From a virus, in the UHGV virus genome UHGV-1361067: 46,806 nt of DNA; one strand, 5' to 3'. This document shows, one piece after another, positions 1,268-19,315 of the stretch. A program made the position numbers and the translations under genes. The stretch's first letter is position 1. Every line of letters starts with the position of its first letter. The notes beneath the pieces were generated by a model. It was not told where the DNA came from. It searched no databases and saw only the letters and a program-made list of their open reading frames with translations.

Positions 1268-2684
1268 CGGTCTGGCCCTGCTGTTGGTCTTGCTGTTGCT
1301 GCTGACCTTCCTGTAATCCGTCAGGAAGCTGCTCCTCCAGAGGCTCCATGCCAACAATGCCGCGCATTTCATCTGCGGTCATCAGGGCCATCTGTCCTGC
1401 ATCGAATACAGATTTGTTTGCAGTGGCAAGCTTGACCAGCAGGTCTGCTTTGTTCAGCTCGGAAGGTGCAAGCAGGTCATCCCATTTGCAGTAATAACCG
1501 CTCTCTGGCGCTTTATCCAGAATGCCAAAGGAAATCATCCGGTCGATGAACACCGAAATGATGTAGTCCAGCCAGTCTTCGCGGCGCTGTTTGGCGCTCA
1601 TGGCGTCGTCGGTTTTATCCTCATCGGATGCAAGGCGGCCAGTCTGCTGACCAAACAGGATGGTGAATGGCTTCTTGATGGATGCCGCAAACTGGTTGGC
1701 CGCAATTGTCCATGTTGGCCCTGGGTCTGCTGGCGTCACCGAGAGCACTTTGACATCAGCGCCCATCGTGAACATCGCCGCGTCAATTGCCTCATTCAGA
1801 CGCGCTACATCCTCATTGAGCACATCAGCCAGTTCTTCCAGCGGCACGCCCATTTGCTGAGCCAGAGACTGAGCGGAAACGCTGTCTTTATTATAATTAA
1901 CGTTGAGCTGCCGACTGGCATTCTTCAGGAAGCCCTCAGCGCTTGAGCCGGTGACTTTCGCCATGTCGATGAGGTGGTTATACCCAGCACGAAGAAGTGG
2001 GACGCCAGAGTAAATGGAGCCATCCATCGCACCCTCGGCAAATACGATAATGCGATCGGGATGAATGCTCAGGGAGCGCGTTGGTTTTCCGTCGCTGTTG
2101 CAGGCGCCGACTACCGACTCCTGATATTCGTACATCTTCGGCTGACCATAGTCTTCGCTGGATTCGTCATTTTCCCATTCACTGACGCGGAGCTGCTCTT
2201 CCCACGCCGGAATGTAGCGGACAATGGCAGCATCCTTGATGCGTTTTGTTTTCGTGGTGTCTACCGGCTCATTCCACTGCCTTCCATCACGGATTTGCAG
2301 GATAAGGCCGGAGTAGCGGTTGATGAGGTTGCGGCGGTCTGCATCCTTGATGAACGGCGCAGCGCGCTTAAACAGCTTGTTGGCTGCTTTCTCCCACGGG
2401 GTGCTTGCTTTGTCATCGGCGCCTTCTTCGAGGATTTGCGGCGGAGTCTGCCAGCACTTATCGAGTACGCGATTGACGCCAGCGGTTGCCGGTGCATAGC
2501 GCTCATAGGCATAGCGGAACATCTCGGCGGTGATTTCTTCAGGGTAGCCACATTCGACATACAGTCTGGTGTGCTTTTGGTCTATGTTTACACCGCTAAA
2601 CTCCCGACGCTGCCGCTCGATGAGCCTGTTATTGTTCGCCACTCGCTGCTGAATATAGGCGTTTACCGCCTCTAACTTTGACAT
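1248..2684 (-). CDS. Portal protein
   Basis: 478-aa ORF upstream of the MuF-like gene in the packaging/head module. It ends with an acidic Q-rich tail. Position and size are typical of SPP1/Mu-type portals. Confidence 0.75.
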
Positions 2685-2694
2685 TTCGTCACCA

Positions 2695-2722
2695 TAAAAA
2701 ATCCCATCGCATGGATGGGATT
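2695..2722 (-). terminator. Hairpin plus T-run (attenuator) immediately upstream of the portal start
   Basis: On the minus strand: ATCCCATC-catgc-GATGGGAT followed by TTTTT. It sits about 12 nt before the portal ATG. Confidence 0.35.
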
Positions 2723-2733
2723 ATAGCATGGTA

Positions 2734-2934
2734 TCAGTCACCAAAGGCTCTCTCTTGAAGGGCCTGGTCATTGTTATGGAATATAGCAAGCTCTATTCTA
2801 TCCCCAAGAACCAAACCGCGACATTTGGCGTACAATTTATAGCGCTTTCCACTGAGTCCAGGCTTAAACCATATCTCCTCAAACCACTTCCTGCAACCAA
2901 CCGCAACATCATGAATCTGTTTTCTTGTCATCAC
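2734..2934 (-). CDS. Hypothetical small protein
   Basis: 66-aa ORF. It is the last of a chain of five small minus-strand ORFs with ATGA/TGATG overlaps between the TerL cassette and the portal gene. Confidence 0.4.
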   Translation of the reverse strand: MMTRKQIHDVAVGCRKWFEEIWFKPGLSGKRYKLYAKCRGLVLGDRIELAIFHNNDQALQERAFGD

Positions 2935-3116
2935 TTCACCTCAACGCATTGCAAATTGTCAACATTTGGACTTACATCATTCCACGTCCGCTTTTCCTCA
3001 GCGATTTTCATTGCCGTAATGGCCGCCATGCACTGCTCCATGCTTTGCATCGGCACCACCTGCATATTGGACGTGTTGCTTGTGATTACGAATATCAGGA
3101 AGAAATACGACATCAC
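2931..3116 (-). CDS. Hypothetical small protein
   Basis: 61-aa ORF. It is translationally coupled to its neighbours (ATGA overlap). Confidence 0.4.
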   Translation of the reverse strand: MMSYFFLIFVITSNTSNMQVVPMQSMEQCMAAITAMKIAEEKRTWNDVSPNVDNLQCVEVK

Positions 3117-3334
3117 TTCGCCTCATCATCAACCAGCGATCTGAACCATGCTGGCTGCAACTTCGCAGCGAGTTTATAGTCAGCACTCTGAATGTAACGT
3201 GCAGCATCATTCAGCTTGTCGGAAAGATAATAAAGTGACTTCCTTGCTCCAAGAAGCATGGCAGCGAATACCAGCATCACAATCAGGTGCGGATTGATGA
3301 TGCAGAACAGGATTGTTTTGACGGCTTTCATCAC
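3113..3334 (-). CDS. Hypothetical small membrane protein
   Basis: 73-aa ORF with a hydrophobic N-terminal segment (ILFCIINPHLIVMLVFAAMLLGA). Overlaps its neighbours (ATGA). Confidence 0.45.
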   Translation of the reverse strand: MMKAVKTILFCIINPHLIVMLVFAAMLLGARKSLYYLSDKLNDAARYIQSADYKLAAKLQPAWFRSLVDDEAK

Positions 3335-4154: not shown

Positions 4155-4183
4155 TTGACGTGGATTCATGGTTGATGTAGATT
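4155..4183 (+). promoter_or_regulatory. Rightward promoter TTGACG-N17-TAGATT
   Basis: TTGACGTGGATT at 4155 and TTGATGTAGATT at 4172. It is preceded by AT-rich ATTTATTATAAAT. Confidence 0.5.
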
Positions 4184-12751: not shown

Positions 12752-12782
12752 CAAAAACCCTCCATCAGGAGGGTTTATTTTT
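12752..12782. terminator. Bidirectional terminator AACCCTCC-atca-GGAGGGTT flanked by A/T runs
   Basis: Hairpin between the convergent 11052-12701 (+) and primase (-) genes. It overlaps the primase stop. Confidence 0.55.
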
Positions 12783-13658
12783 TAGTGCTTCAAATAGCTC
12801 TTCTGGTTTATGCAGCCTTTTTCTGATGGCGCCGCTGTAACGAATATCCTGCCCGTCATCAGTAATGAGTATCGGCAGACCTGCATTCTCGGCAGCGCAT
12901 ACCTCATCGAAATTATTATTAATGATGCAACGCAGTTTAGTGCGCTGCTCATAGTTAACATTGCGCACAACTTCCCACATGTTTTCCGGCGACCAGCAAC
13001 ACCAGACATGTGCGCCGGTAAGCCTGTGTGCTCGCCAGGCATCGAAGTAATCCGCAACCAGGTATGTCCACTCTGTTTTTTCACCAATCGGTGTCACTGC
13101 GCCTCGCGTAAGTCTTCCGCGAGTGTACTCATGGCTAAAACCTGCGCGAAATGACACGCTTTCATAGTCTGCCAGAAAAGCTACATTGCATGGCGTCATG
13201 GTTCCAGCCATATAGAGCGGTATCGCCACCAGTTCACCAGTTTTACCTGTTATGGTGTCATTGCCTGCTTTTTTCATGATCGCCTCTACTTCTTCTGGAG
13301 TAAGGCAGTCCGATGCACCATTGACTTTTGGCAACTGCTTTCTAATCGCCTCAAGTTTTTCGCGTGGATGCATGTTCAGGAATCCTCCTAGCGCCTCAAG
13401 TGCTTCTGGGAAGCTCATGCCAGAGAGTTTCATCAGCCAGTTCATGCCGCTGCCGGAACCGCACTGATTGCAGATTGCGCCGCCATCGCCTTTCGTTTCG
13501 AAGTTGTCATCAAAGCGATACCTGTCTTTGCCAAGGCATGATGGGCATGGCTGGTGCTTTCCGTTGAAAACTCTGCTATCCACATTGACGATAGACATGA
13601 TGGCAGCCTGCCAATTTCCAAGCATTTTTGGCTCAATGTCTTTCCAGTCGTATCTCAT
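12765..13658 (-). CDS. DNA primase (Zn-ribbon + TOPRIM type)
   Basis: Primase Zn-ribbon motif HQPCPSCLGKDRYRF…CNQCGSG near the N-terminus. The TOPRIM-like C-terminal half includes ILITDDGQD. Likely start is MRYDWKD at 13658, with an AGGAAG SD. Confidence 0.7.
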   Translation of the reverse strand: MRYDWKDIEPKMLGNWQAAIMSIVNVDSRVFNGKHQPCPSCLGKDRYRFDDNFETKGDGGAICNQCGSGSGMNWLMKLSGMSFPEALEALGGFLNMHPREKLEAIRKQLPKVNGASDCLTPEEVEAIMKKAGNDTITGKTGELVAIPLYMAGTMTPCNVAFLADYESVSFRAGFSHEYTRGRLTRGAVTPIGEKTEWTYLVADYFDAWRAHRLTGAHVWCCWSPENMWEVVRNVNYEQRTKLRCIINNNFDEVCAAENAGLPILITDDGQDIRYSGAIRKRLHKPEELFEALKNKPS

Positions 13659-13670
13659 AAAATCTTCCTG

Positions 13671-13699
13671 TTGACGATGATGTAGATTCATTGTAATTT
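13671..13699 (+). promoter_or_regulatory. Rightward promoter TTGACG-N17-TAATTT with TGATGTAGATT in the spacer
   Basis: First element of the duplicated module; compare 17664-17692. Confidence 0.5.
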
Positions 13700-13730
13700 A
13701 CTCGTATGAAACAATCAATCGTTACTTGCA

Positions 13731-14807
13731 ATGAAACAATTAATCGTTACAATAGAGGATAAGAAATGGCTATCACCGTCAAGAAGTGCGAGGTTTGCGG
13801 AAATGAGTTTATCGGAACTGCAAAAGCAAAATGTTGCTCAGGAAAGTGCAGGGTTAAAAAATGCAGGAACCAAAAGAAAGTCACACATTTCACAGGAGAG
13901 GCTAAGGGAGGTTCTTGATTACAACCCAGATACTGGGATATTCACACGTAAGATAAAGACAGGTTCTCGTGTTAAAGTCGGAGATATTGCTGGCTGTCTT
14001 GATGTTAGTGGTTATCTGAGAATTAGCATAGATGGCAATCAATATTGGGCGCAAAGACTCGCATGGATTTATGTTAATGGAGATAATATTGGGAATGCGA
14101 AAATTGAGCACATAAACAAAAATCGCGCTGACAACAGGATATGCAACCTCAGGCTTTCAACTGAAGTTTTAAATGAGAAAATGTGCTCAAAATGCAGGTC
14201 CGTTCTTCCAGCTACAAGCGAATACTTTTATGCAGATAAAAGTATGAAACTTGGCTTTAGTTCCATATGCAAGAAGTGCTCTGGTAATAAAGGGAAGAGA
14301 GCAAGATACCTTGGTAATGGATTGAAGATTTGCTCTAAGTGTAAATCTGTTCTTGAGGCGAACGAAGAAAACTTTAATAAAAATAAATCATCTCTTGATG
14401 GACTACGTCCTGATTGCAAAAAATGTCAGGCTGAGTTCAGGAAAAATATTTATAAATTAAAAAAGGCAGAGATAAATGAAAAATCAAAACGTTATTACGA
14501 TAAAAACAAGGAAAAGCATAACGAGAAGTCAAAGCAGTGGAGACAGAAAAACAAGGGTGTTGTTAGATATCATCAGCGTAAATATAAGTATCTTAAAAGA
14601 CGGGCGATACCATCATGGTTTGAACATGAAAGGGTTTTAATTGAAAAGGTTTATGAGATGGCTGGCGTTCTTGGTATGCAGGTTGATCACATAGTGCCAA
14701 TAAATAGCAAATTGGTTTGTGGCCTTCACTGCTGGCATAACTTGCAATTACTTGCACCAAGTGAGAACAGATCTAAAAGCAACTCTTATTGGCCTGACAT
14801 GCCATAG
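13731..14807 (+). CDS. Double-HNH endonuclease (N-terminal HNH_3, two Zn-ribbon repeats, C-terminal canonical HNH)
   Basis: IEHINKNRADNRICNLRL (HNH_3), CSKCRS…CKKC twice, and C-terminal VDHIVPINSKLVCGLHCWHNLQLLAPSENRSK. The conserved body starts at about 13900. The N-terminal about 55 codons overlap the Zn-ribbon ORF in another frame, so the real start is uncertain. Confidence 0.6.
   Translation: MKQLIVTIEDKKWLSPSRSARFAEMSLSELQKQNVAQESAGLKNAGTKRKSHISQERLREVLDYNPDTGIFTRKIKTGSRVKVGDIAGCLDVSGYLRISIDGNQYWAQRLAWIYVNGDNIGNAKIEHINKNRADNRICNLRLSTEVLNEKMCSKCRSVLPATSEYFYADKSMKLGFSSICKKCSGNKGKRARYLGNGLKICSKCKSVLEANEENFNKNKSSLDGLRPDCKKCQAEFRKNIYKLKKAEINEKSKRYYDKNKEKHNEKSKQWRQKNKGVVRYHQRKYKYLKRRAIPSWFEHERVLIEKVYEMAGVLGMQVDHIVPINSKLVCGLHCWHNLQLLAPSENRSKSNSYWPDMP
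13766..13918 (+). CDS. Small zinc-ribbon protein (50 aa, CxxC…CxxxC)
   Basis: MAITVKKCEVCGNEFIGTAKAKCCSGKCR…. Has a good SD (AGAGGATAAG). Differences from the paralog at 17753 are mostly synonymous in this frame. Confidence 0.55.
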   Translation: MAITVKKCEVCGNEFIGTAKAKCCSGKCRVKKCRNQKKVTHFTGEAKGGS

Positions 14808-14815
14808 GTGATGAA

Positions 14816-16741
14816 ATGCACAAAATAGACAAAATGATTTCAGAGATTGATATAGATAGATTAAAGCAATCAATAAAAATAGGTTCCATAGAGCCGTATG
14901 ATTACCAATGGCTTGTTTACGCAAAGTGCGCTGAGGTTATTCGTAATTTTGGCAAGAAACCTGAACCAAGCTATGTTACAGCGTCTGTTTCATCAGGGAA
15001 GACCGTGATGATTTCAATGCTTTGCAGTAGATTTCAGGATATGGGGTGGGATGGCCTTGTAATCTCAAGGCAGGGCGAGATAGCTGAGCAGAATGCTGAA
15101 ATGATGTGGGAGTGTGGTGTAAAAAACTCTCTTTATAGCGCATCTCTTGGCAGGAAAAGTACAGCATACCCTATTATATGCGGTACTGAAGGATCAATCG
15201 CGAACGCACTTTTTGATAAAAAAGATGAATCAAATGGTGACGTCAAGAAAGGGGGATTGAGTAATTTTACCCCAAGATTTTGCCTGATCGATGAGTCCCA
15301 CCAAGCTCCATGGCAGGATATTATTAGTGATAATCCAACAACACAATATGGCGTAATACTTACTGAACTTAACAGGCGCTGCAAGGCAAGATATGGTCAT
15401 GAAATGATAACAATTGGATTCACCGGTAGCCCATTCCGTGGTACTGAATCAATGAAAGGTGCGTACTGGAAAAATGAAATAATAAACATTGATACAAAGT
15501 ACATGGTAGATCGCGGTTTTGTTGTGCCAACAATCTTTGGTCTTCATGATGTTGATGATTTGAAATATGACTTGCATAACTTCCATGGTTCAGATGTTGA
15601 CGGCACACAGGACTTCACTTCCGAGCAGCTCAAGCAGATGCAGAAAGAAATACTTGAGCAAGGAACACTAACGCAGAAAATCATGCTCAAGGTTATGGAG
15701 TTGACTAAAAACAGGAACGGAGTGCTGATCACATGCGCTGGTAAAAAACACTGTCAGGAAGCGGCTAAATATTTACCCGAAGGAAGTTATGCTATCGTCA
15801 CCGAGGATATGGGGCAGAAAGCCAGACGCAAGGCGTTAAAAGACGCATACACTGGCAAGATTAAATATGTTTTCCAGATTGGTTGTTTGACGACTGGCGT
15901 CAACATCCCGCTTTGGGATACAAGCGTCATATTGCGAAAAATAATGTCACTCACTCTTCTTGTGCAGCTTCTTGGTCGCGGAATGCGCCTGCTGAAGAAA
16001 GAACAAATTGATGCCGGGTATCATAAAGAAGACCATCTGGTTCTTGATTTCTCAGGCACGATGTTTGAGCTTGGTCAGCTATATGAAGACCCAATCCTTG
16101 AAGAGGCTGAAGCGCAACGTTCAAAACGCAGTGGTGAACAAGTTCCGTGCCCGAAATGCGGGGCAATGAATAGCCCATATGCGCGTCGCTGCATCGGCAA
16201 AGATGCATTGTCGCCAGATGGTCGTTGCGAGGAGTTTTTCAGTTACATTCGTTGCGGTTTCGACAAGCATGGCATCCGTATTTTTGATGATGGATGCGGC
16301 ACTAAAAACGACCCCACTGCGCGTTATTGCCGACATTGCGATCATGTTTTGCGCGACCCGAATGCGGCACTTAATGAGCGTGCGTATACCGATAATGAGT
16401 GGACTGATGTTAAAGACTTCAAGATTGAATTAACGAAAGATGAAAAGGGTGTCGTTTATCGTTATTTCATCACGAAAGAGAATGGCAAAGATGGGTGGGC
16501 TAATGAGGTCTTTTATCCTTTTGGGAGACAAGAGAAGTATCTGAAAAATCAGTTCAAGATTAAAGGTTTATTGAATCACGTATCAGACAGGAATCTAATT
16601 GATAACCTTATGAATTGCCACAGTGCAAAAGCATTCATGGCATTTACTGGACTTATTCGCGCACCTAAACGCATCACGCATCGATTTAACGATAAAGGCC
16701 GCGATATCATCCACAGAAAAGAATTCGGACAAAAAAAATGA
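14816..16741 (+). CDS. SF2 DNA helicase (DEAH-type) with C-terminal zinc fingers
   Basis: Motif I ASVSSGKT, motif II LIDESHQ, motif VI QLLGRGMR. C-terminal CPKCG…RRC and CRHCDH. Confidence 0.75.
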   Translation: MHKIDKMISEIDIDRLKQSIKIGSIEPYDYQWLVYAKCAEVIRNFGKKPEPSYVTASVSSGKTVMISMLCSRFQDMGWDGLVISRQGEIAEQNAEMMWECGVKNSLYSASLGRKSTAYPIICGTEGSIANALFDKKDESNGDVKKGGLSNFTPRFCLIDESHQAPWQDIISDNPTTQYGVILTELNRRCKARYGHEMITIGFTGSPFRGTESMKGAYWKNEIINIDTKYMVDRGFVVPTIFGLHDVDDLKYDLHNFHGSDVDGTQDFTSEQLKQMQKEILEQGTLTQKIMLKVMELTKNRNGVLITCAGKKHCQEAAKYLPEGSYAIVTEDMGQKARRKALKDAYTGKIKYVFQIGCLTTGVNIPLWDTSVILRKIMSLTLLVQLLGRGMRLLKKEQIDAGYHKEDHLVLDFSGTMFELGQLYEDPILEEAEAQRSKRSGEQVPCPKCGAMNSPYARRCIGKDALSPDGRCEEFFSYIRCGFDKHGIRIFDDGCGTKNDPTARYCRHCDHVLRDPNAALNERAYTDNEWTDVKDFKIELTKDEKGVVYRYFITKENGKDGWANEVFYPFGRQEKYLKNQFKIKGLLNHVSDRNLIDNLMNCHSAKAFMAFTGLIRAPKRITHRFNDKGRDIIHRKEFGQKK

Positions 16742-17262
16742 ACTGGCATGATTATTTTTACTATGAAAATGGCCTTCTTATATGGAAGGAAAGAGATGTT
16801 TCAACTTTTAAAACGAAGAGGTCAGCAGCCACTTGGAATACCAGGTTTGCACATAAAACGGCAGGTAACAAGTGCCCAAGGTTTGGTTATGTAATGGTCA
16901 GAATTGGCAGGGGTCTTTATCGTGCACATAGAATCATATGGGAAATGCATAACGGTCAAATACAAGGAGATATGCAGATTGATCATATCAACCATGTTCG
17001 TGATGACAATCGAATAGAAAATCTCAGGCTAGTTAATAATCTTGGGAATGGCATGAATCAAAGTATCGCAGCCAATAACACCTCTGGAGTTACTGGTGTG
17101 ACATGGAACTCAGACAGGAAGAAATGGATGGCTCAAATAAAAGTAAAGGGTAAAAACATTTATCTTGGGCTATTTGTTGATTTTAATAATGCAGCAAAAG
17201 CAAGAGCGGAAGCCGAGGTTAAGCACGGATTCCATCAAAACCACGGTAGGAGAACAAATTGA
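16738..17262 (+). CDS. HNH homing endonuclease with AP2 domain
   Basis: HRIIWEMHNGQIQGDMQIDHINHVRDDNRIENLRL plus SGVTGVTWNSDRKKWMAQIKV. ATGA overlap with the helicase stop. Confidence 0.75.
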   Translation: MNWHDYFYYENGLLIWKERDVSTFKTKRSAATWNTRFAHKTAGNKCPRFGYVMVRIGRGLYRAHRIIWEMHNGQIQGDMQIDHINHVRDDNRIENLRLVNNLGNGMNQSIAANNTSGVTGVTWNSDRKKWMAQIKVKGKNIYLGLFVDFNNAAKARAEAEVKHGFHQNHGRRTN

Positions 17263-17684
17263 AGCAGCTTGATAGTGGAATATGGGTATTTGATAGCGGT
17301 TATCGCGGAGAATGCCCAAAGGAGGAGACTGACCAGATGGGTTACGGCACATGGATGCAACACCGCTTCCCTGATGTTCTGTGGTTTCATGTACCAAACG
17401 AAACTGGCACATCAAGCATGGTGCAGTTTGTGCTGAAGCGCCAGAAGATGGGGGTTAAGGCTGGGATAGGCGATAACGTGATAATGACGCCAGGGGTAAA
17501 TCACAGTTGCGGGATGATTGAAGCAAAGCGCCGCGATAAAAGCAAAAGCAGGGTTAGCAAAGAGCAATCCGCTGTGTTAACTGAGATGTGCAGGCTTGGT
17601 CATTATGCCGCCATCGCTTACGGTCTTGATGAACTAAAAAAAGCCACACTTTTCTATTTTGGCTTGCTGAATGATGTAGATTGA
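17259..17684 (+). CDS. VRR-NUC domain nuclease
   Basis: GVKAGIGDNVIM…GMIEAKRRDKSKSRVSKEQ matches the VRR-NUC (PD-(D/E)xK) signature. TTG start with an AGGAG SD. An alternative ATG lies at 17337. Confidence 0.6.
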   Translation: MKQLDSGIWVFDSGYRGECPKEETDQMGYGTWMQHRFPDVLWFHVPNETGTSSMVQFVLKRQKMGVKAGIGDNVIMTPGVNHSCGMIEAKRRDKSKSRVSKEQSAVLTEMCRLGHYAAIAYGLDELKKATLFYFGLLNDVD

Positions 17685-17692
17685 TGTATTGT
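17664..17692 (+). promoter_or_regulatory. Rightward promoter TTGCTG-N17-TATTGT with ATGATGTAGATTGATG in the spacer
   Basis: Homologous to the promoter at 13671. Confidence 0.45.
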
Positions 17693-17729
17693 TAGTAACA
17701 AATAAAAGTTACTTGCAATGTAACGGTAA

Positions 17730-18356
17730 ATGATTACAATAGAGGTTAAGAAATGGCTATCACCGTTAAGAAGTGCGAGGTTTGCGGAAATGAGTTTATC
17801 GGAACTGCAAAAGCAAGATTTTGCTCTGGGAAATGCAGAGTCAAACACCATAGGTGGAAGAAAAAGAATACCACGTGATGTTGTTTTGGATAGCTTAAAT
17901 TACAACCATGAAACAGGGGTTTTCATTAGAAATAAGACAGGTGGAGGTGTAAAAAAGGGTAGTGTTGCTGGCAGGAAAAAACATAACGGATACATAGAGA
18001 TAAGCATAAGCAATAAAAGATACTACGCGCATCGCTTGGCATGGTTGATTTATCATGGTTTCTGGCCTGAAGGTCAAATTGATCACATTAATGGTGTGCG
18101 TGACGATAACAGGATTTGCAACTTAAGAATCGCAACAAATATGCAGAATCAGTATAACGCTAAAAAGCCAAAAAATAACACATCAGGAGTTAAAGGTGTG
18201 TATTGGCAAAAACAGGTTAAAAAGTGGCAGGCTTACTGTGATGTTAACGGGAAAAGATACCATCTTGGGTTATTCAGTGATATTGAGAGAGCGCGGTTGT
18301 CTGTGATGAAATTCAGAGAAAAGATGCATAAAGAATTCTGTAACCACGGAGAGTGA
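17730..18356 (+). CDS. HNH homing endonuclease with AP2 domain (start uncertain)
   Basis: QIDHINGVRDDNRICNLRI plus SGVKGVYWQKQVKKWQAYCDV…LGLF. The N-terminal extension overlaps the Zn-ribbon ORF. An in-frame TTG at about 17890 (LDSLNYNHETG…) is an alternative start. Confidence 0.65.
   Translation: MITIEVKKWLSPLRSARFAEMSLSELQKQDFALGNAESNTIGGRKRIPRDVVLDSLNYNHETGVFIRNKTGGGVKKGSVAGRKKHNGYIEISISNKRYYAHRLAWLIYHGFWPEGQIDHINGVRDDNRICNLRIATNMQNQYNAKKPKNNTSGVKGVYWQKQVKKWQAYCDVNGKRYHLGLFSDIERARLSVMKFREKMHKEFCNHGE
17753..17878 (+). CDS. Small zinc-ribbon protein (41 aa), paralog of 13766-13918
   Basis: MAITVKKCEVCGNEFIGTAKARFCSGKCRVKHHRWKKKNTT*. The SD is conserved. Confidence 0.5.
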   Translation: MAITVKKCEVCGNEFIGTAKARFCSGKCRVKHHRWKKKNTT

Positions 18357-19315
18357 TGATGAGAGTTTATTTCAACAATGAGTTAAGCAATCAGGATTAT
18401 CATGCTGACAAAGAGCACATTAATGGTTCTGGGTTATGGAATATACTTGACAGATGCCCGGCAGCATGGCGCTATAAAGACGAAGAAGACGAGCAGTCAA
18501 AGGCGCTTGTTTTCGGCACCGGTAGCCATACCGCTCTGCTTGAGCCTGAGCGCTTCGAAGCAGAATATGCCCGCATGCCAGTTGTCGAAGATTTTCCAAA
18601 AGACAAAGATGGCAATCGCACGGTGCTGGTGACAGCTTCCGACATGAACTCATGGGCGAAAGAGCGCGGCATTAAAGGGCTTTCAGGTAAGACTAAAGCC
18701 GAAGTGATTAAAATTATTCAGGCCACTGGCGATACAGCGCAGATTTACGATGTTATCCGTGAAGAAGCAGAGAAGGCCGCTACTGGTAAATCAATGCTGG
18801 AAGGTGATGACTATGACGCCATCATGCAGATGCGCGCCGTAATCCATGCGAACAGCTATTACAGCAGCCTTCTTTCTGGTGCTTATTCCGAGGTGTCAAT
18901 TCTCGGTGATTTGCTTGGCGAACCATCAAAGGTGCGATTTGACTGCCTTACTCGCGGTGGCGACATCATCGACTACAAAACAGCGGTGAGCGCAAAGCCT
19001 GATGAGTTTTTCCGCCATGCAGCGCAGCTAGGGTACTTTATGAAGATGGCGATGCAACACGACATGTTTGTCGAGGCTTATGGGCATGCACCTCGCTCGG
19101 TAAATCTTCTGGTGCAGGAGAAGAAATCGCCATTCATCCCTGCGTTGATTCGTCTGACTGATGAACAGTTACGCATTGGTCGCATTCAACTGCGCAGCGC
19201 GATGGAAATCTATAAGGCATGCAAAAAAGCCAATTCATGGCCAGGTTACTCAATGGGTAATCCGGTCATCGAAATGGAAACTCCGGAATGGTTCAAAAAG
19301 CAATTTAACCTGTAA
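18353..19315 (+). CDS. PD-(D/E)xK recombination exonuclease (YqaJ/lambda-Exo-like)
   Basis: GGDIIDYKT motif. Sits upstream of ERF and SSB, in the position typical of recombination modules. Three consecutive ATGs (18353, 18356, 18359) could serve as the start. Confidence 0.55.
   Translation: MMMRVYFNNELSNQDYHADKEHINGSGLWNILDRCPAAWRYKDEEDEQSKALVFGTGSHTALLEPERFEAEYARMPVVEDFPKDKDGNRTVLVTASDMNSWAKERGIKGLSGKTKAEVIKIIQATGDTAQIYDVIREEAEKAATGKSMLEGDDYDAIMQMRAVIHANSYYSSLLSGAYSEVSILGDLLGEPSKVRFDCLTRGGDIIDYKTAVSAKPDEFFRHAAQLGYFMKMAMQHDMFVEAYGHAPRSVNLLVQEKKSPFIPALIRLTDEQLRIGRIQLRSAMEIYKACKKANSWPGYSMGNPVIEMETPEWFKKQFNL

Follow-up and report, generated by a model that had tools for sequence, protein, structure and literature searches.

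Two HNH endonuclease genes in the window, by which we mean the whole 46,806-nucleotide (nt) stretch of viral DNA that was analyzed (UHGV-1361067), each follow one copy of a duplicated leader that holds a promoter and a short zinc-ribbon (ZnR) open reading frame (ORF). The explanation that we favor, and consider reasonably probable, is that promoter, ZnR gene, and nuclease gene constitute a mobile cassette and that nuclease translation starts at an ATG nested in the +1 frame of the ZnR gene. An initial annotation of the window had described the duplicated leader and proposed that the nucleases are expressed by recoding or by reinitiation. Its observation is largely right, its recoding reading is not supported, and an overlapping gene pair with a nested +1 start in a portable cassette is the best reading of the data.

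The window is a siphophage genome of ~47 kb whose closest relatives are the Salmonella phages LPSTLL, Skate, and Vi II-E1 and the Shigella phage DS8, the last being 100% identical to it over the module. The comparison set comprised ~45 leader-bearing loci drawn from a phage database, IMG/VR, and metagenomes. It contained 32 distinct promoter-plus-ZnR sequences in two leader families, window-type and Klebsiella/Saltre-type (hereafter Klebsiella-type), with ~70% DNA identity, together with the more distant leader lineages L038, L040, L042 (from a Vibrio phage), L053, L055, and L061. A scan of bacterial genomes for the module found 0 copies. Literature searches yielded no account of such an arrangement, nor any of homing-endonuclease genes expressed by recoding.

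A duplicated leader precedes two different HNH genes

The window contains a single direct-repeat family, with two copies only (positions 13710 to 13858 and 17697 to 17845), which are 87% identical without gaps, bearing out the description of a duplicated module of ~150 nt and ~90% identity. When the copies are compared from the -35 hexamer (13721 to 13858 versus 17708 to 17845), 123 of 138 positions (89%) match. Both carry a TTGCAA-16-TACAAT promoter, a Shine-Dalgarno (SD) sequence in the arrangement GAGG-N7-ATG, and a mini-ORF with the pattern CxxC...CxxxC.

The bodies that follow the two copies are different, supporting the view that the promoter and ZnR module acts as an overlapping leader for two distinct HNH genes, and both HNH_3 domains were found in the +1 frame, as annotated. 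The Pfam HNH_3 matches exceed the curated cutoff (E = 3.6e-9 in copy 1 and 1.8e-16 in copy 2), and there are matches to phrog_99 (E = 1e-46 and 5e-68) and, in copy 1, also to phrog_1035. Ratios of nonsynonymous to synonymous polymorphism (pN/pS) range from 0.07 to 0.28 among the HNH bodies overall, with values of 0.18 to 0.24 for copy 1 and 0.16 to 0.28 for copy 2, indicating purifying selection.

The copy 1 nuclease is composite: an HNH_3 module, which occurs alone in type A' relatives, is inserted in frame into a type C-like protein, whose own parts are CxxC...CxxC repeats and, at the C terminus, an HNH/endonuclease VII-like domain. One chain thus carries two nuclease modules.

The ZnR frame encodes a conserved small protein

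Within ZnR codons 1 to 31, the two copies differ at eight sites. Six of these differences are synonymous and two are nonsynonymous in the ZnR frame, as opposed to none synonymous and eight nonsynonymous in the +1 frame, so the count of six synonymous substitutions given in the initial annotation stands, as does its statement that nearly all are nonsynonymous in the other frame. Its further claim, that the ZnR frame is the one under purifying selection, holds among homologs in both leader families. With an expected synonymous fraction of 0.20, variants in the ZnR core are 19 synonymous and 7 nonsynonymous among 21 window-type sequences (P ~ 1e-8) and 19 synonymous and 8 nonsynonymous among 11 Klebsiella-type sequences (P ~ 1e-8). 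Read in the +1 frame, the same variants are 0 synonymous to 26 nonsynonymous and 3 synonymous to 24 nonsynonymous, respectively. Variable sites in the core concentrate on ZnR third positions, the four zinc ligands are retained down to ~50% identity, and the ZnR ORF remains intact at two loci at which the HNH gene has decayed (Escherichia phage Bas81 and L033). Judged from these substitution patterns, the ZnR ORF encodes a genuine protein of 41 to 50 amino acids (aa), a predicted treble-clef zinc ribbon with a basic helix, and both overlapping frames are coding.

In the decayed Bas81 cassette (locus L002, positions 2493 to 3172), the HNH body is broken by a stop codon and a change of frame. The Bas81 record annotates no gene in this 680-nt stretch.

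The ZnR protein, of which CEVCGNEFIGTAK is a predicted peptide, was modeled with AlphaFold2 (AF2) as a zinc-knuckle hairpin with strands at residues 4 to 7 and 14 to 17 and a basic helix at residues 26 to 42, at a predicted local distance difference test (pLDDT) score of 78 from an alignment of 5 sequences only. The DUF2116 family scores 12.3 and 18.7 bits against the two ZnR copies, below its curated cutoff of 26.8. A profile search with the ZnR domain recovered 539 relatives with the signature CxxCG..F......(F)CSxxCR, which comprise stand-alone proteins of 40 to 52 aa, tandem arrays, and chains that also hold an HNH domain. The domain occurs in cis with HNH in P0034, P0101, and L023/L024; among the close relatives, none of the ~45 loci carries an in-frame ZnR-HNH fusion, such fusions being confined to distant proteins.

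In the metagenomic viral contigs L023 and L024 (region 588 to 2930), an inner ORF (2054 to 2731) encodes a 225-aa HNH endonuclease with two C-terminal ZnR repeats. It lies wholly inside the ORF of the terminase large subunit, in another frame, and the terminase there reads as intein-like (CIAEG...SNC). One possibility is that this is an intein and that its homing nuclease is encoded by a distinct gene overlapping it.

Promoter, ZnR gene, and nuclease gene are inserted as a single unit

Both cassettes lie in the replication module, cassette 1 between the primase and helicase genes and cassette 2 between the VRR-NUC and exonuclease VIII genes, and related genomes show a presence/absence polymorphism at the same intergenic site at each locus. 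The empty locus 1 of phage SCNJ1-C consists of primase, 74 nt, and helicase, and the empty locus 2 of Vi II-E1 consists of VRR-NUC, 25 nt, and exonuclease VIII. Promoter, ZnR gene, and nuclease gene are all absent from both. Comparison with Vi II-E1 delimits the whole unit from 17689 to 18352 as an insertion, and in other relatives, locus 1 is occupied by different bodies. Because the empty sites lack all three elements together, the ZnR gene moves along with the nuclease rather than belonging to the backbone. The possibility that ZnR is a backbone gene targeted by endonuclease insertion is rejected on the same ground.

At least 10 different bodies follow the leader, all in the +1 frame, among them several HNH_3 types, the type with zinc repeats and a C-terminal HNH, an HNH of phrog_953 from a Vibrio phage, and a family of unknown type. 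In many relatives, the first ~150 nt are 97 to 99% identical, after which the sequence diverges into another nuclease body. These comparisons show that promoter, ZnR gene, and nuclease gene form one mobile cassette, which is an insertion and whose leader is shared by unrelated bodies. The cassettes are of the free-standing homing-endonuclease type, for which site-specific cleavage and homing are predicted.

Both cassettes start directly 3' of a copy of the motif GTRGATTSA, and the empty sites of SCNJ1-C and Vi II-E1 hold one or two copies. The window has seven matches, as opposed to 1.9 expected (at 4160, 10335 on the minus strand, 13682, 17676, 30894, 35404, and 46593), five of which stand in intergenic, promoter-like contexts that resemble TTGACGTAGATTGA-N(9-10)-TATAGT. 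The motif may be the promoter consensus of the phage itself and possibly also an insertion target. A 12-nt identity upstream of both copies, ATGATGTAGATT, was considered as a homing target or as part of the duplicated unit, and this was largely rejected, as the identity belongs to the recurrent backbone motif TTGACGTAGATTGA, although each cassette does start directly 3' of it.

The left flank of cassette 1 overlaps the listed primase ORF, which starts at 13691 (MNLHHRQQEDF...). The SCNJ1-C primase starts at the equivalent of the second methionine (MRYDWKD..., near position 13658 of the window), and positions 13659 to 13691 are therefore probably intergenic promoter DNA rather than coding sequence.

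The nuclease most likely starts at a nested +1 ATG

The statement that copy 1 has no ordinary start codon for its HNH gene proved wrong: the HNH frame contains an ATG at 13803 with GAGG 9 nt upstream, and also an ATG at 13731. The nested ATG, which has the same SD spacing in copy 2, lies 37 nt into the ZnR ORF, and the nuclease and ZnR genes overlap by 89 to 116 nt. Window-type leaders form this ATG from ZnR codons N13-E14, with GAGG (E9-V10) 9 nt upstream, and Klebsiella-type leaders form it 3 codons later (H/Y16-G17), with GGAG (G12-R13) 8 nt upstream; start codon and SD sequence move together between the two families. L061 has a GTG at codon 6 with AGAGG 6 nt upstream, and L042, L053, and L055 have equivalent pairs of SD sequence and nested start. 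Stop codons in the +1 frame recur upstream of the nested start (in L002, L017, and all Klebsiella-type leaders) and never occur downstream of it.

We evaluated this arrangement by resampling, holding the ZnR protein fixed, redrawing its synonymous codons according to phage codon usage, and scoring an SD-led +1 start after which the frame stays open. The per-lineage probability of this event is 0.03 to 0.27. Eight of 10 lineages show it (tail probability, 1.6e-8), and merging related lineages leaves 6 of 8 (3.6e-6); these values are optimistic because the lineages are related. The nested start is, by this test, statistically nonrandom. L038 is the one lineage in which +1 stops are unavoidable given the ZnR sequence, and it has, in place of the nested start, a proximal TTG preceded by a GAGGA SD sequence, a complementary pattern that fits independent initiation and not recoding. 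Types A (window copy 1), C, G, and H and lineage L040 have no canonical start near the HNH N terminus. The equivalent of the nested ATG is annotated as the nuclease start in six records (Skate, HC6, VLCpiS13a, KpnS_VR6602, 64795_sal3, and Vibrio 1.236.O).

A different start is implied by the long ORFs as annotated, which would make the nuclease from ATG 13731 or 17730 and leave the ZnR frame untranslated. The +1 frame is indeed open from 13710 and from 17730 in the window, and the Bas78 record annotates a start of the 17730 type. However, ATG 13731 begins on the last base of the -35 hexamer, inside the promoter, and 17730 lies just 5' of the -10. Moreover, in L002, L017, and every Klebsiella-type leader, +1 stops separate the long-ORF ATG from the nested one, ruling out ATG 13731 as a conserved start. 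The concentration of substitutions at ZnR third positions, where they are nonsynonymous in +1, and the retention of the four zinc ligands likewise argue against an untranslated ZnR frame, and we regard this alternative as extremely improbable.

The nuclease most likely begins, then, at its own SD-led ATG nested out of frame in the ZnR gene and not by frameshifting. It would be a second, overlapping gene whose translation begins at 13803 or 17790 and passes through ~30 codons that are free of amino acid constraint before reaching the conserved HNH N terminus. The two starts, 37 nt apart, would compete, which could keep nuclease output low. The nested start also accounts for the constant +1 phase: because promoter, ribosome-binding site (RBS), and start codon all lie in the shared leader, any body joined to it must be in +1.

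Frameshifting, slippage, and reinitiation account poorly for the junctions

In prfB, the P-site codon in CUU_U re-pairs in the +1 frame, and an SD-like element is located 3 nt upstream of the shift codon. The initial annotation likened the end of the copy 1 ZnR gene to this site, and the context that it cited, AAGGGAGG-T-TCT-TGA-T, is present at 13904 to 13919, with TCT TGA (13913 to 13918) in the ZnR frame, supplying the in-frame UGA of a prfB-type site. A programmed +1 frameshift here or in the Lys-rich tail, or slippage during transcription, would produce a ZnR-HNH fusion nuclease. Such a product would be consistent with the constant +1 phase across all leader-body junctions, with the occurrence elsewhere of single-chain (ZnR)n-HNH proteins (P0034 and P0101), with the SD-like GGAGG just 5' of TCT_TGA in types A and K1, and with the A-rich runs found in every tail.

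The details of the site do not fit this reading. A +1 shift from UCU followed by U would put tRNA-Ser on CUU, where the first position mismatches and re-pairing is poor, and GGAGG is separated from TCT by 1 nt (T). In other leader types, the stop contexts are ACG_TGA, CCA_TGA, CAC_TAG, AAG_TGA, GCA_TGA, TCC_TGA, and GAT_TGA, such that 8 types differ. Type A relatives vary at a position 5 codons before the ZnR stop, where they have AGG, CGA, or CGG. The HNH frame reads Arg there in every case, but the ZnR frame reads E/A plus A/I/V. Because these changes are silent in the HNH frame and nonsilent in the ZnR frame, the HNH frame appears to be read before the proposed shift site. Types K1 and B carry an in-frame ATG (M-E-x-L-D/E-Y-N) in the region of the supposed SD element, and AAGGGAGG of the window resembles this ATG mutated to AGG.

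For slippage, the A runs are only 4 to 7 nt in length, and their positions are not conserved. Conserved RNA structure that might stimulate frameshifting or hide the RBS was not detected (minimum free energy z scores of -0.7 and -0.6; 9 weak pairs and 0 compensatory changes in a 12-sequence alignment). Nor would recoding lead one to expect a conserved SD-led +1 start, an open +1 frame over the ZnR core, or the proximal TTG and SD sequence of L038. The prfB-like frameshift is rejected on site chemistry, nonconservation, and HNH-frame selection upstream of the stop, and slippage is rejected on the length and unconserved position of the A runs. The constant +1 phase was also discarded as independent evidence of recoding, since it is equally expected from a start codon in the shared leader. 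Overall, we consider a fusion nuclease produced by either route unlikely.

Reinitiation, the other route proposed, would couple two genes at the ZnR stop, with the nuclease restarting at a proximal codon, either TTG 17886 in copy 2 or a noncanonical one such as ATT 13887 in copy 1. The TTG described in copy 2 is indeed present, its first base 8 nt past the last base of the stop, a proximity that favors coupling; however, it has no SD sequence and is TTA in L022, whose nuclease body is intact, and its proposed role as a restart codon is not upheld. Types K1, B, and K2, with an ATG 4 codons before L-D/E-Y-N and a 14-nt overlap with the ZnR stop, and L038, with its TTG and SD sequence, also favor coupling. 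Against it, copy 1, types C, G, and H, and L040 lack an ATG, GTG, or TTG in the HNH frame near the ZnR stop; type C requires the residues CSRC, which are encoded well 5' of that stop; and the constant +1 phase with unrelated bodies is left unexplained. Restarting at the ZnR stop is, in our estimation, an improbable general route to the nuclease.

Promoter palindromes suggest regulation by a cassette-encoded protein

In all lineages, the leader promoter has a -35 of TTGACA or TTGCAA, a spacer of 16 to 17 nt, and a -10 of TACAAT, TAATAT, or TACATT. The spacer holds a palindrome with the consensus GTAACG-N6-CGTTAC, the right arm of which overlaps the -10. This layout of -35, -10, and dyad is conserved in nine leader lineages, across which the arms are conserved while the N6 varies. 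Arm pairing is 6/6 in L061, 5/6 in L042, L053, and L038, and 4/6 in both window copies, ranging down to 3/6. In each window copy, a second dyad abuts the -35 (Table 1), and the pattern GWAAC-N8-GTTAC has four matches in the window, all within the two modules, as opposed to 0.06 expected.

As the only product common to all cassettes, ZnR is the obvious candidate for binding the palindrome. It would bind GTAACG-N6-CGTTAC and repress the cassette promoter, help the nuclease find DNA, or both, and it may be an autorepressor of the cassette, the predicted DNA binding being suggested by the operator-like dyads. In its fullest form, this proposal makes the leader a portable cassette with paired palindromic operators, a ZnR repressor that binds as a dimer, and a nested start, in which ~150 nt suffice to transcribe, translate, and throttle any body placed behind them. 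We offer this full version tentatively and think it somewhat doubtful.

Alternatively, ZnR could be a YacG-like, protein-binding zinc finger, such as an inhibitor of a host enzyme, that shares only the promoter with the nuclease and has no part in regulating or targeting it. The best PDB matches to the AF2 model are YacG structures (4tma and 1lv3; E = 0.33 to 2, template modeling score of 0.46 to 0.56), and 3 of 149 relatives of the domain have YacG Pfam matches. However, the structural matches are not significant; every leader lineage examined has a ZnR ORF that overlaps the body gene following it, an HNH nuclease in all but one; the domain is elsewhere fused in cis to HNH; and the cassette-specific promoter palindrome calls for a DNA binder encoded by the cassette. 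A role unconnected with the nuclease is, on this evidence, quite unlikely.

Several observations weigh against a mobile cassette with a nested start and a ZnR regulator, in addition to the relatedness of the lineages in the resampling test. Initiation by ribosomes at the AUGs at 13803 and 17790 is something that we infer. The +1 residues between the nested ATG and the HNH N terminus show no amino acid conservation, and an N-terminal extension would have to be a passive linker for that reason; in L022, the nested ATG has become ATA and the nuclease body is still intact. The structure nearest to ZnR, that of YacG, is a protein-binding zinc finger, although the match is not significant (E = 0.33). 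Finally, only 12 nt separate the end of the -10 from the ZnR ATG in the window, placing the ZnR SD sequence (13755 to 13758) probably 5' of the cassette transcription start site, and transcripts from the cassette promoter probably lack it as a consequence. In L040, this distance is as short as 6 nt. ZnR may be translated from transcripts of an upstream backbone promoter or, at locus 2, from read-through; a near-leaderless mRNA is another possible template.

A consensus scan also found a promoter-like site on the minus strand (TTGATT-17-TACAAT, 13690 to 13718). Its -35 lies inside the dyad at 13708 to 13725, and this dyad could in principle also affect leftward transcription of the primase gene.

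Features of the window around the two cassettes

The coordinates of the cassettes and their neighbors are collected in Table 1. A third endonuclease gene, with HNH_3 and AP2 domains but no ZnR leader, stands between the helicase and VRR-NUC genes. It overlaps both neighbors: its ATG shares bases with the helicase stop (ATGA, 16738 to 16741), and its stop does so with the TTG start of VRR-NUC.

Table 1. Cassette elements and neighboring genes in the window
Feature	Positions	Strand	Basis or remarks
ZnR ORF, copy 1 (50 aa)	13766-13918	+	C8-x2-C11...C24-x3-C28, basic helix; GAGG 13755-13758
ZnR ORF, copy 2 (41 aa)	17753-17878	+	ORF list; DUF2116 treble clef, E 0.0017, below curated cutoff
Nested start, copy 1 (probable)	GAGG 13790-13793, 9 nt, ATG 13803-13805	+	+1 frame inside ZnR ORF
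Nested start, copy 2 (probable)	GAGG 17777-17780, ATG 17790	+	Same spacing as copy 1
Endonuclease ORF, copy 1 (334 aa from nested ATG)	13803-14807	+	Unconstrained N-terminal extension; HNH_3; CxxC repeats; at the C terminus, a second module (HNH/EndoVII-like)
Endonuclease ORF, copy 2 (from nested ATG)	17790-18356	+	HNH_3 + AP2; GAGG 17777-17780
Sigma-70-type promoter, copy 1, TTGCAA-16-TACAAT	13726-13753	+	Consensus scan; holds dyad GAAACA-N6-CGTTAC 13733-13750 and ATG 13731
Promoter, copy 2, TTGCAA-16-TACAAT	17713-17740	+	Dyad GTAACG-N6-GATTAC 17720-17737
Upstream dyad, copy 1, GAAACA-N6-CGTTAC (candidate operator 2)	13708-13725	+	Abuts -35; arms 4/6
Upstream dyad, copy 2, GTAACA-N6-AGTTAC	17695-17712	+	Abuts -35; arms 5/6
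Backbone promoter-like motif, TTGACG-16-TAATTT	13672-13699	+	Contains GTAGATTCA 13682-13690; left flank of cassette 1, outside mobile unit
Proposed frameshift site, AAGGGAGG-T-TCT-TGA	13904-13918	+	Read here as HNH codons L-R-E-V-L-D plus ZnR stop
Primase	12765-13691	-	ORF list
Helicase	14816-16741	+	ORF list
Third HNH gene, without leader	16738-17262	+	ORF list
VRR-NUC	17259-17684	+	ORF list
Exonuclease VIII	18353-19315		ORF list

Implications for annotation and for homing endonucleases

Public phage records that contain the leader number 69 or more, and almost all of them omit the conserved ZnR gene; among those inspected, only that of LPST10 lists it. Records also disagree on where the overlapping endonuclease gene begins, three different starts being used. 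A methodological caution follows: an out-of-frame gene pair with an SD-like element by a stop codon can mimic recoding, whereas the comparative data in this case point to an ordinary nested start.

Free-standing homing endonucleases can, on this evidence, travel with their own promoter, a candidate regulator, and a start codon, exchanging bodies behind a constant leader. If operators, a ZnR repressor, and a nested start do act together, homing endonucleases would have a means, not described previously, of taking their regulation with them between unrelated phages, here those of Enterobacteria, Vibrio, and environmental lineages. Proof that ZnR represses the cassette would raise the interest of the finding.

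Comparison with known systems

That a zinc-ribbon protein can stand beside an HNH endonuclease is known already. The variant described here is the overlap with a probable nested start, in a mobile homing cassette whose ZnR gene has been overlooked. Small zinc-ribbon proteins are encoded adjacent to the "Group 4" phage HNH endonucleases, some being fused to them in one chain, and have been proposed to act as transcription regulators or as mini-specificity subunits (Xu & Gupta 2013, NAR 41:378, PMC3592412). As in Group 4, a separate small Cys4 zinc-ribbon ORF lies directly beside the HNH gene, here under purifying selection and overlapping it. Unlike Group 4 genes, which lie beside cos and terminase and encode packaging-type HNH proteins, the genes in the window belong to free-standing, homing-type cassettes in the replication module. 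Further differences are the overlap between the two genes, with the nuclease start probably nested out of frame in ZnR, and the sharing of one ZnR leader by unrelated nuclease bodies.

The resemblance to prfB (release factor 2) consists of an in-frame UGA after an SD-like, G-rich element and a downstream protein in +1. The window site differs in its P-site codon (UCU, not CUU), in its SD spacing (1 nt, not 3 nt), and in its lack of conservation among homologous leaders. Moreover, the downstream frame is under selection 5' of the stop, and an ordinary start codon is available.

ZnR shares with treble clefs of the YacG, DUF2116, and FCS types the pattern CxxC...(F)CSxxCR, a modeled beta-hairpin followed by a helix, and a length of ~40 to 60 aa; its matches to DUF2116 and to YacG structures are weak, with all scores below thresholds. 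YacG binds GyrB and not DNA, whereas DNA binding is the activity suggested for ZnR.

The homing endonuclease I-TevI reportedly binds an operator that overlaps its own promoter, leading to autorepression. As in that system, the promoter of a homing-endonuclease cassette carries a specific site, which in I-TevI is bound by protein and keeps expression low and controlled and for which binding in the present case is suggested by the palindrome. The repressor in I-TevI is the DNA-binding domain of the nuclease itself, whereas the candidate here is a separate zinc-ribbon protein of 41 to 50 aa.

T4-type phages are said to harbor mobile regulatory cassettes termed PeSLs (promoter-early-stem-loop). 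Like a PeSL, the leader is a conserved 5' regulatory module that flanks variable cargo and probably aids modular shuffling by homologous recombination. PeSLs are noncoding, consisting of a promoter and a stem-loop, whereas the leader described here encodes a protein and most likely supplies the start codon of its cargo.

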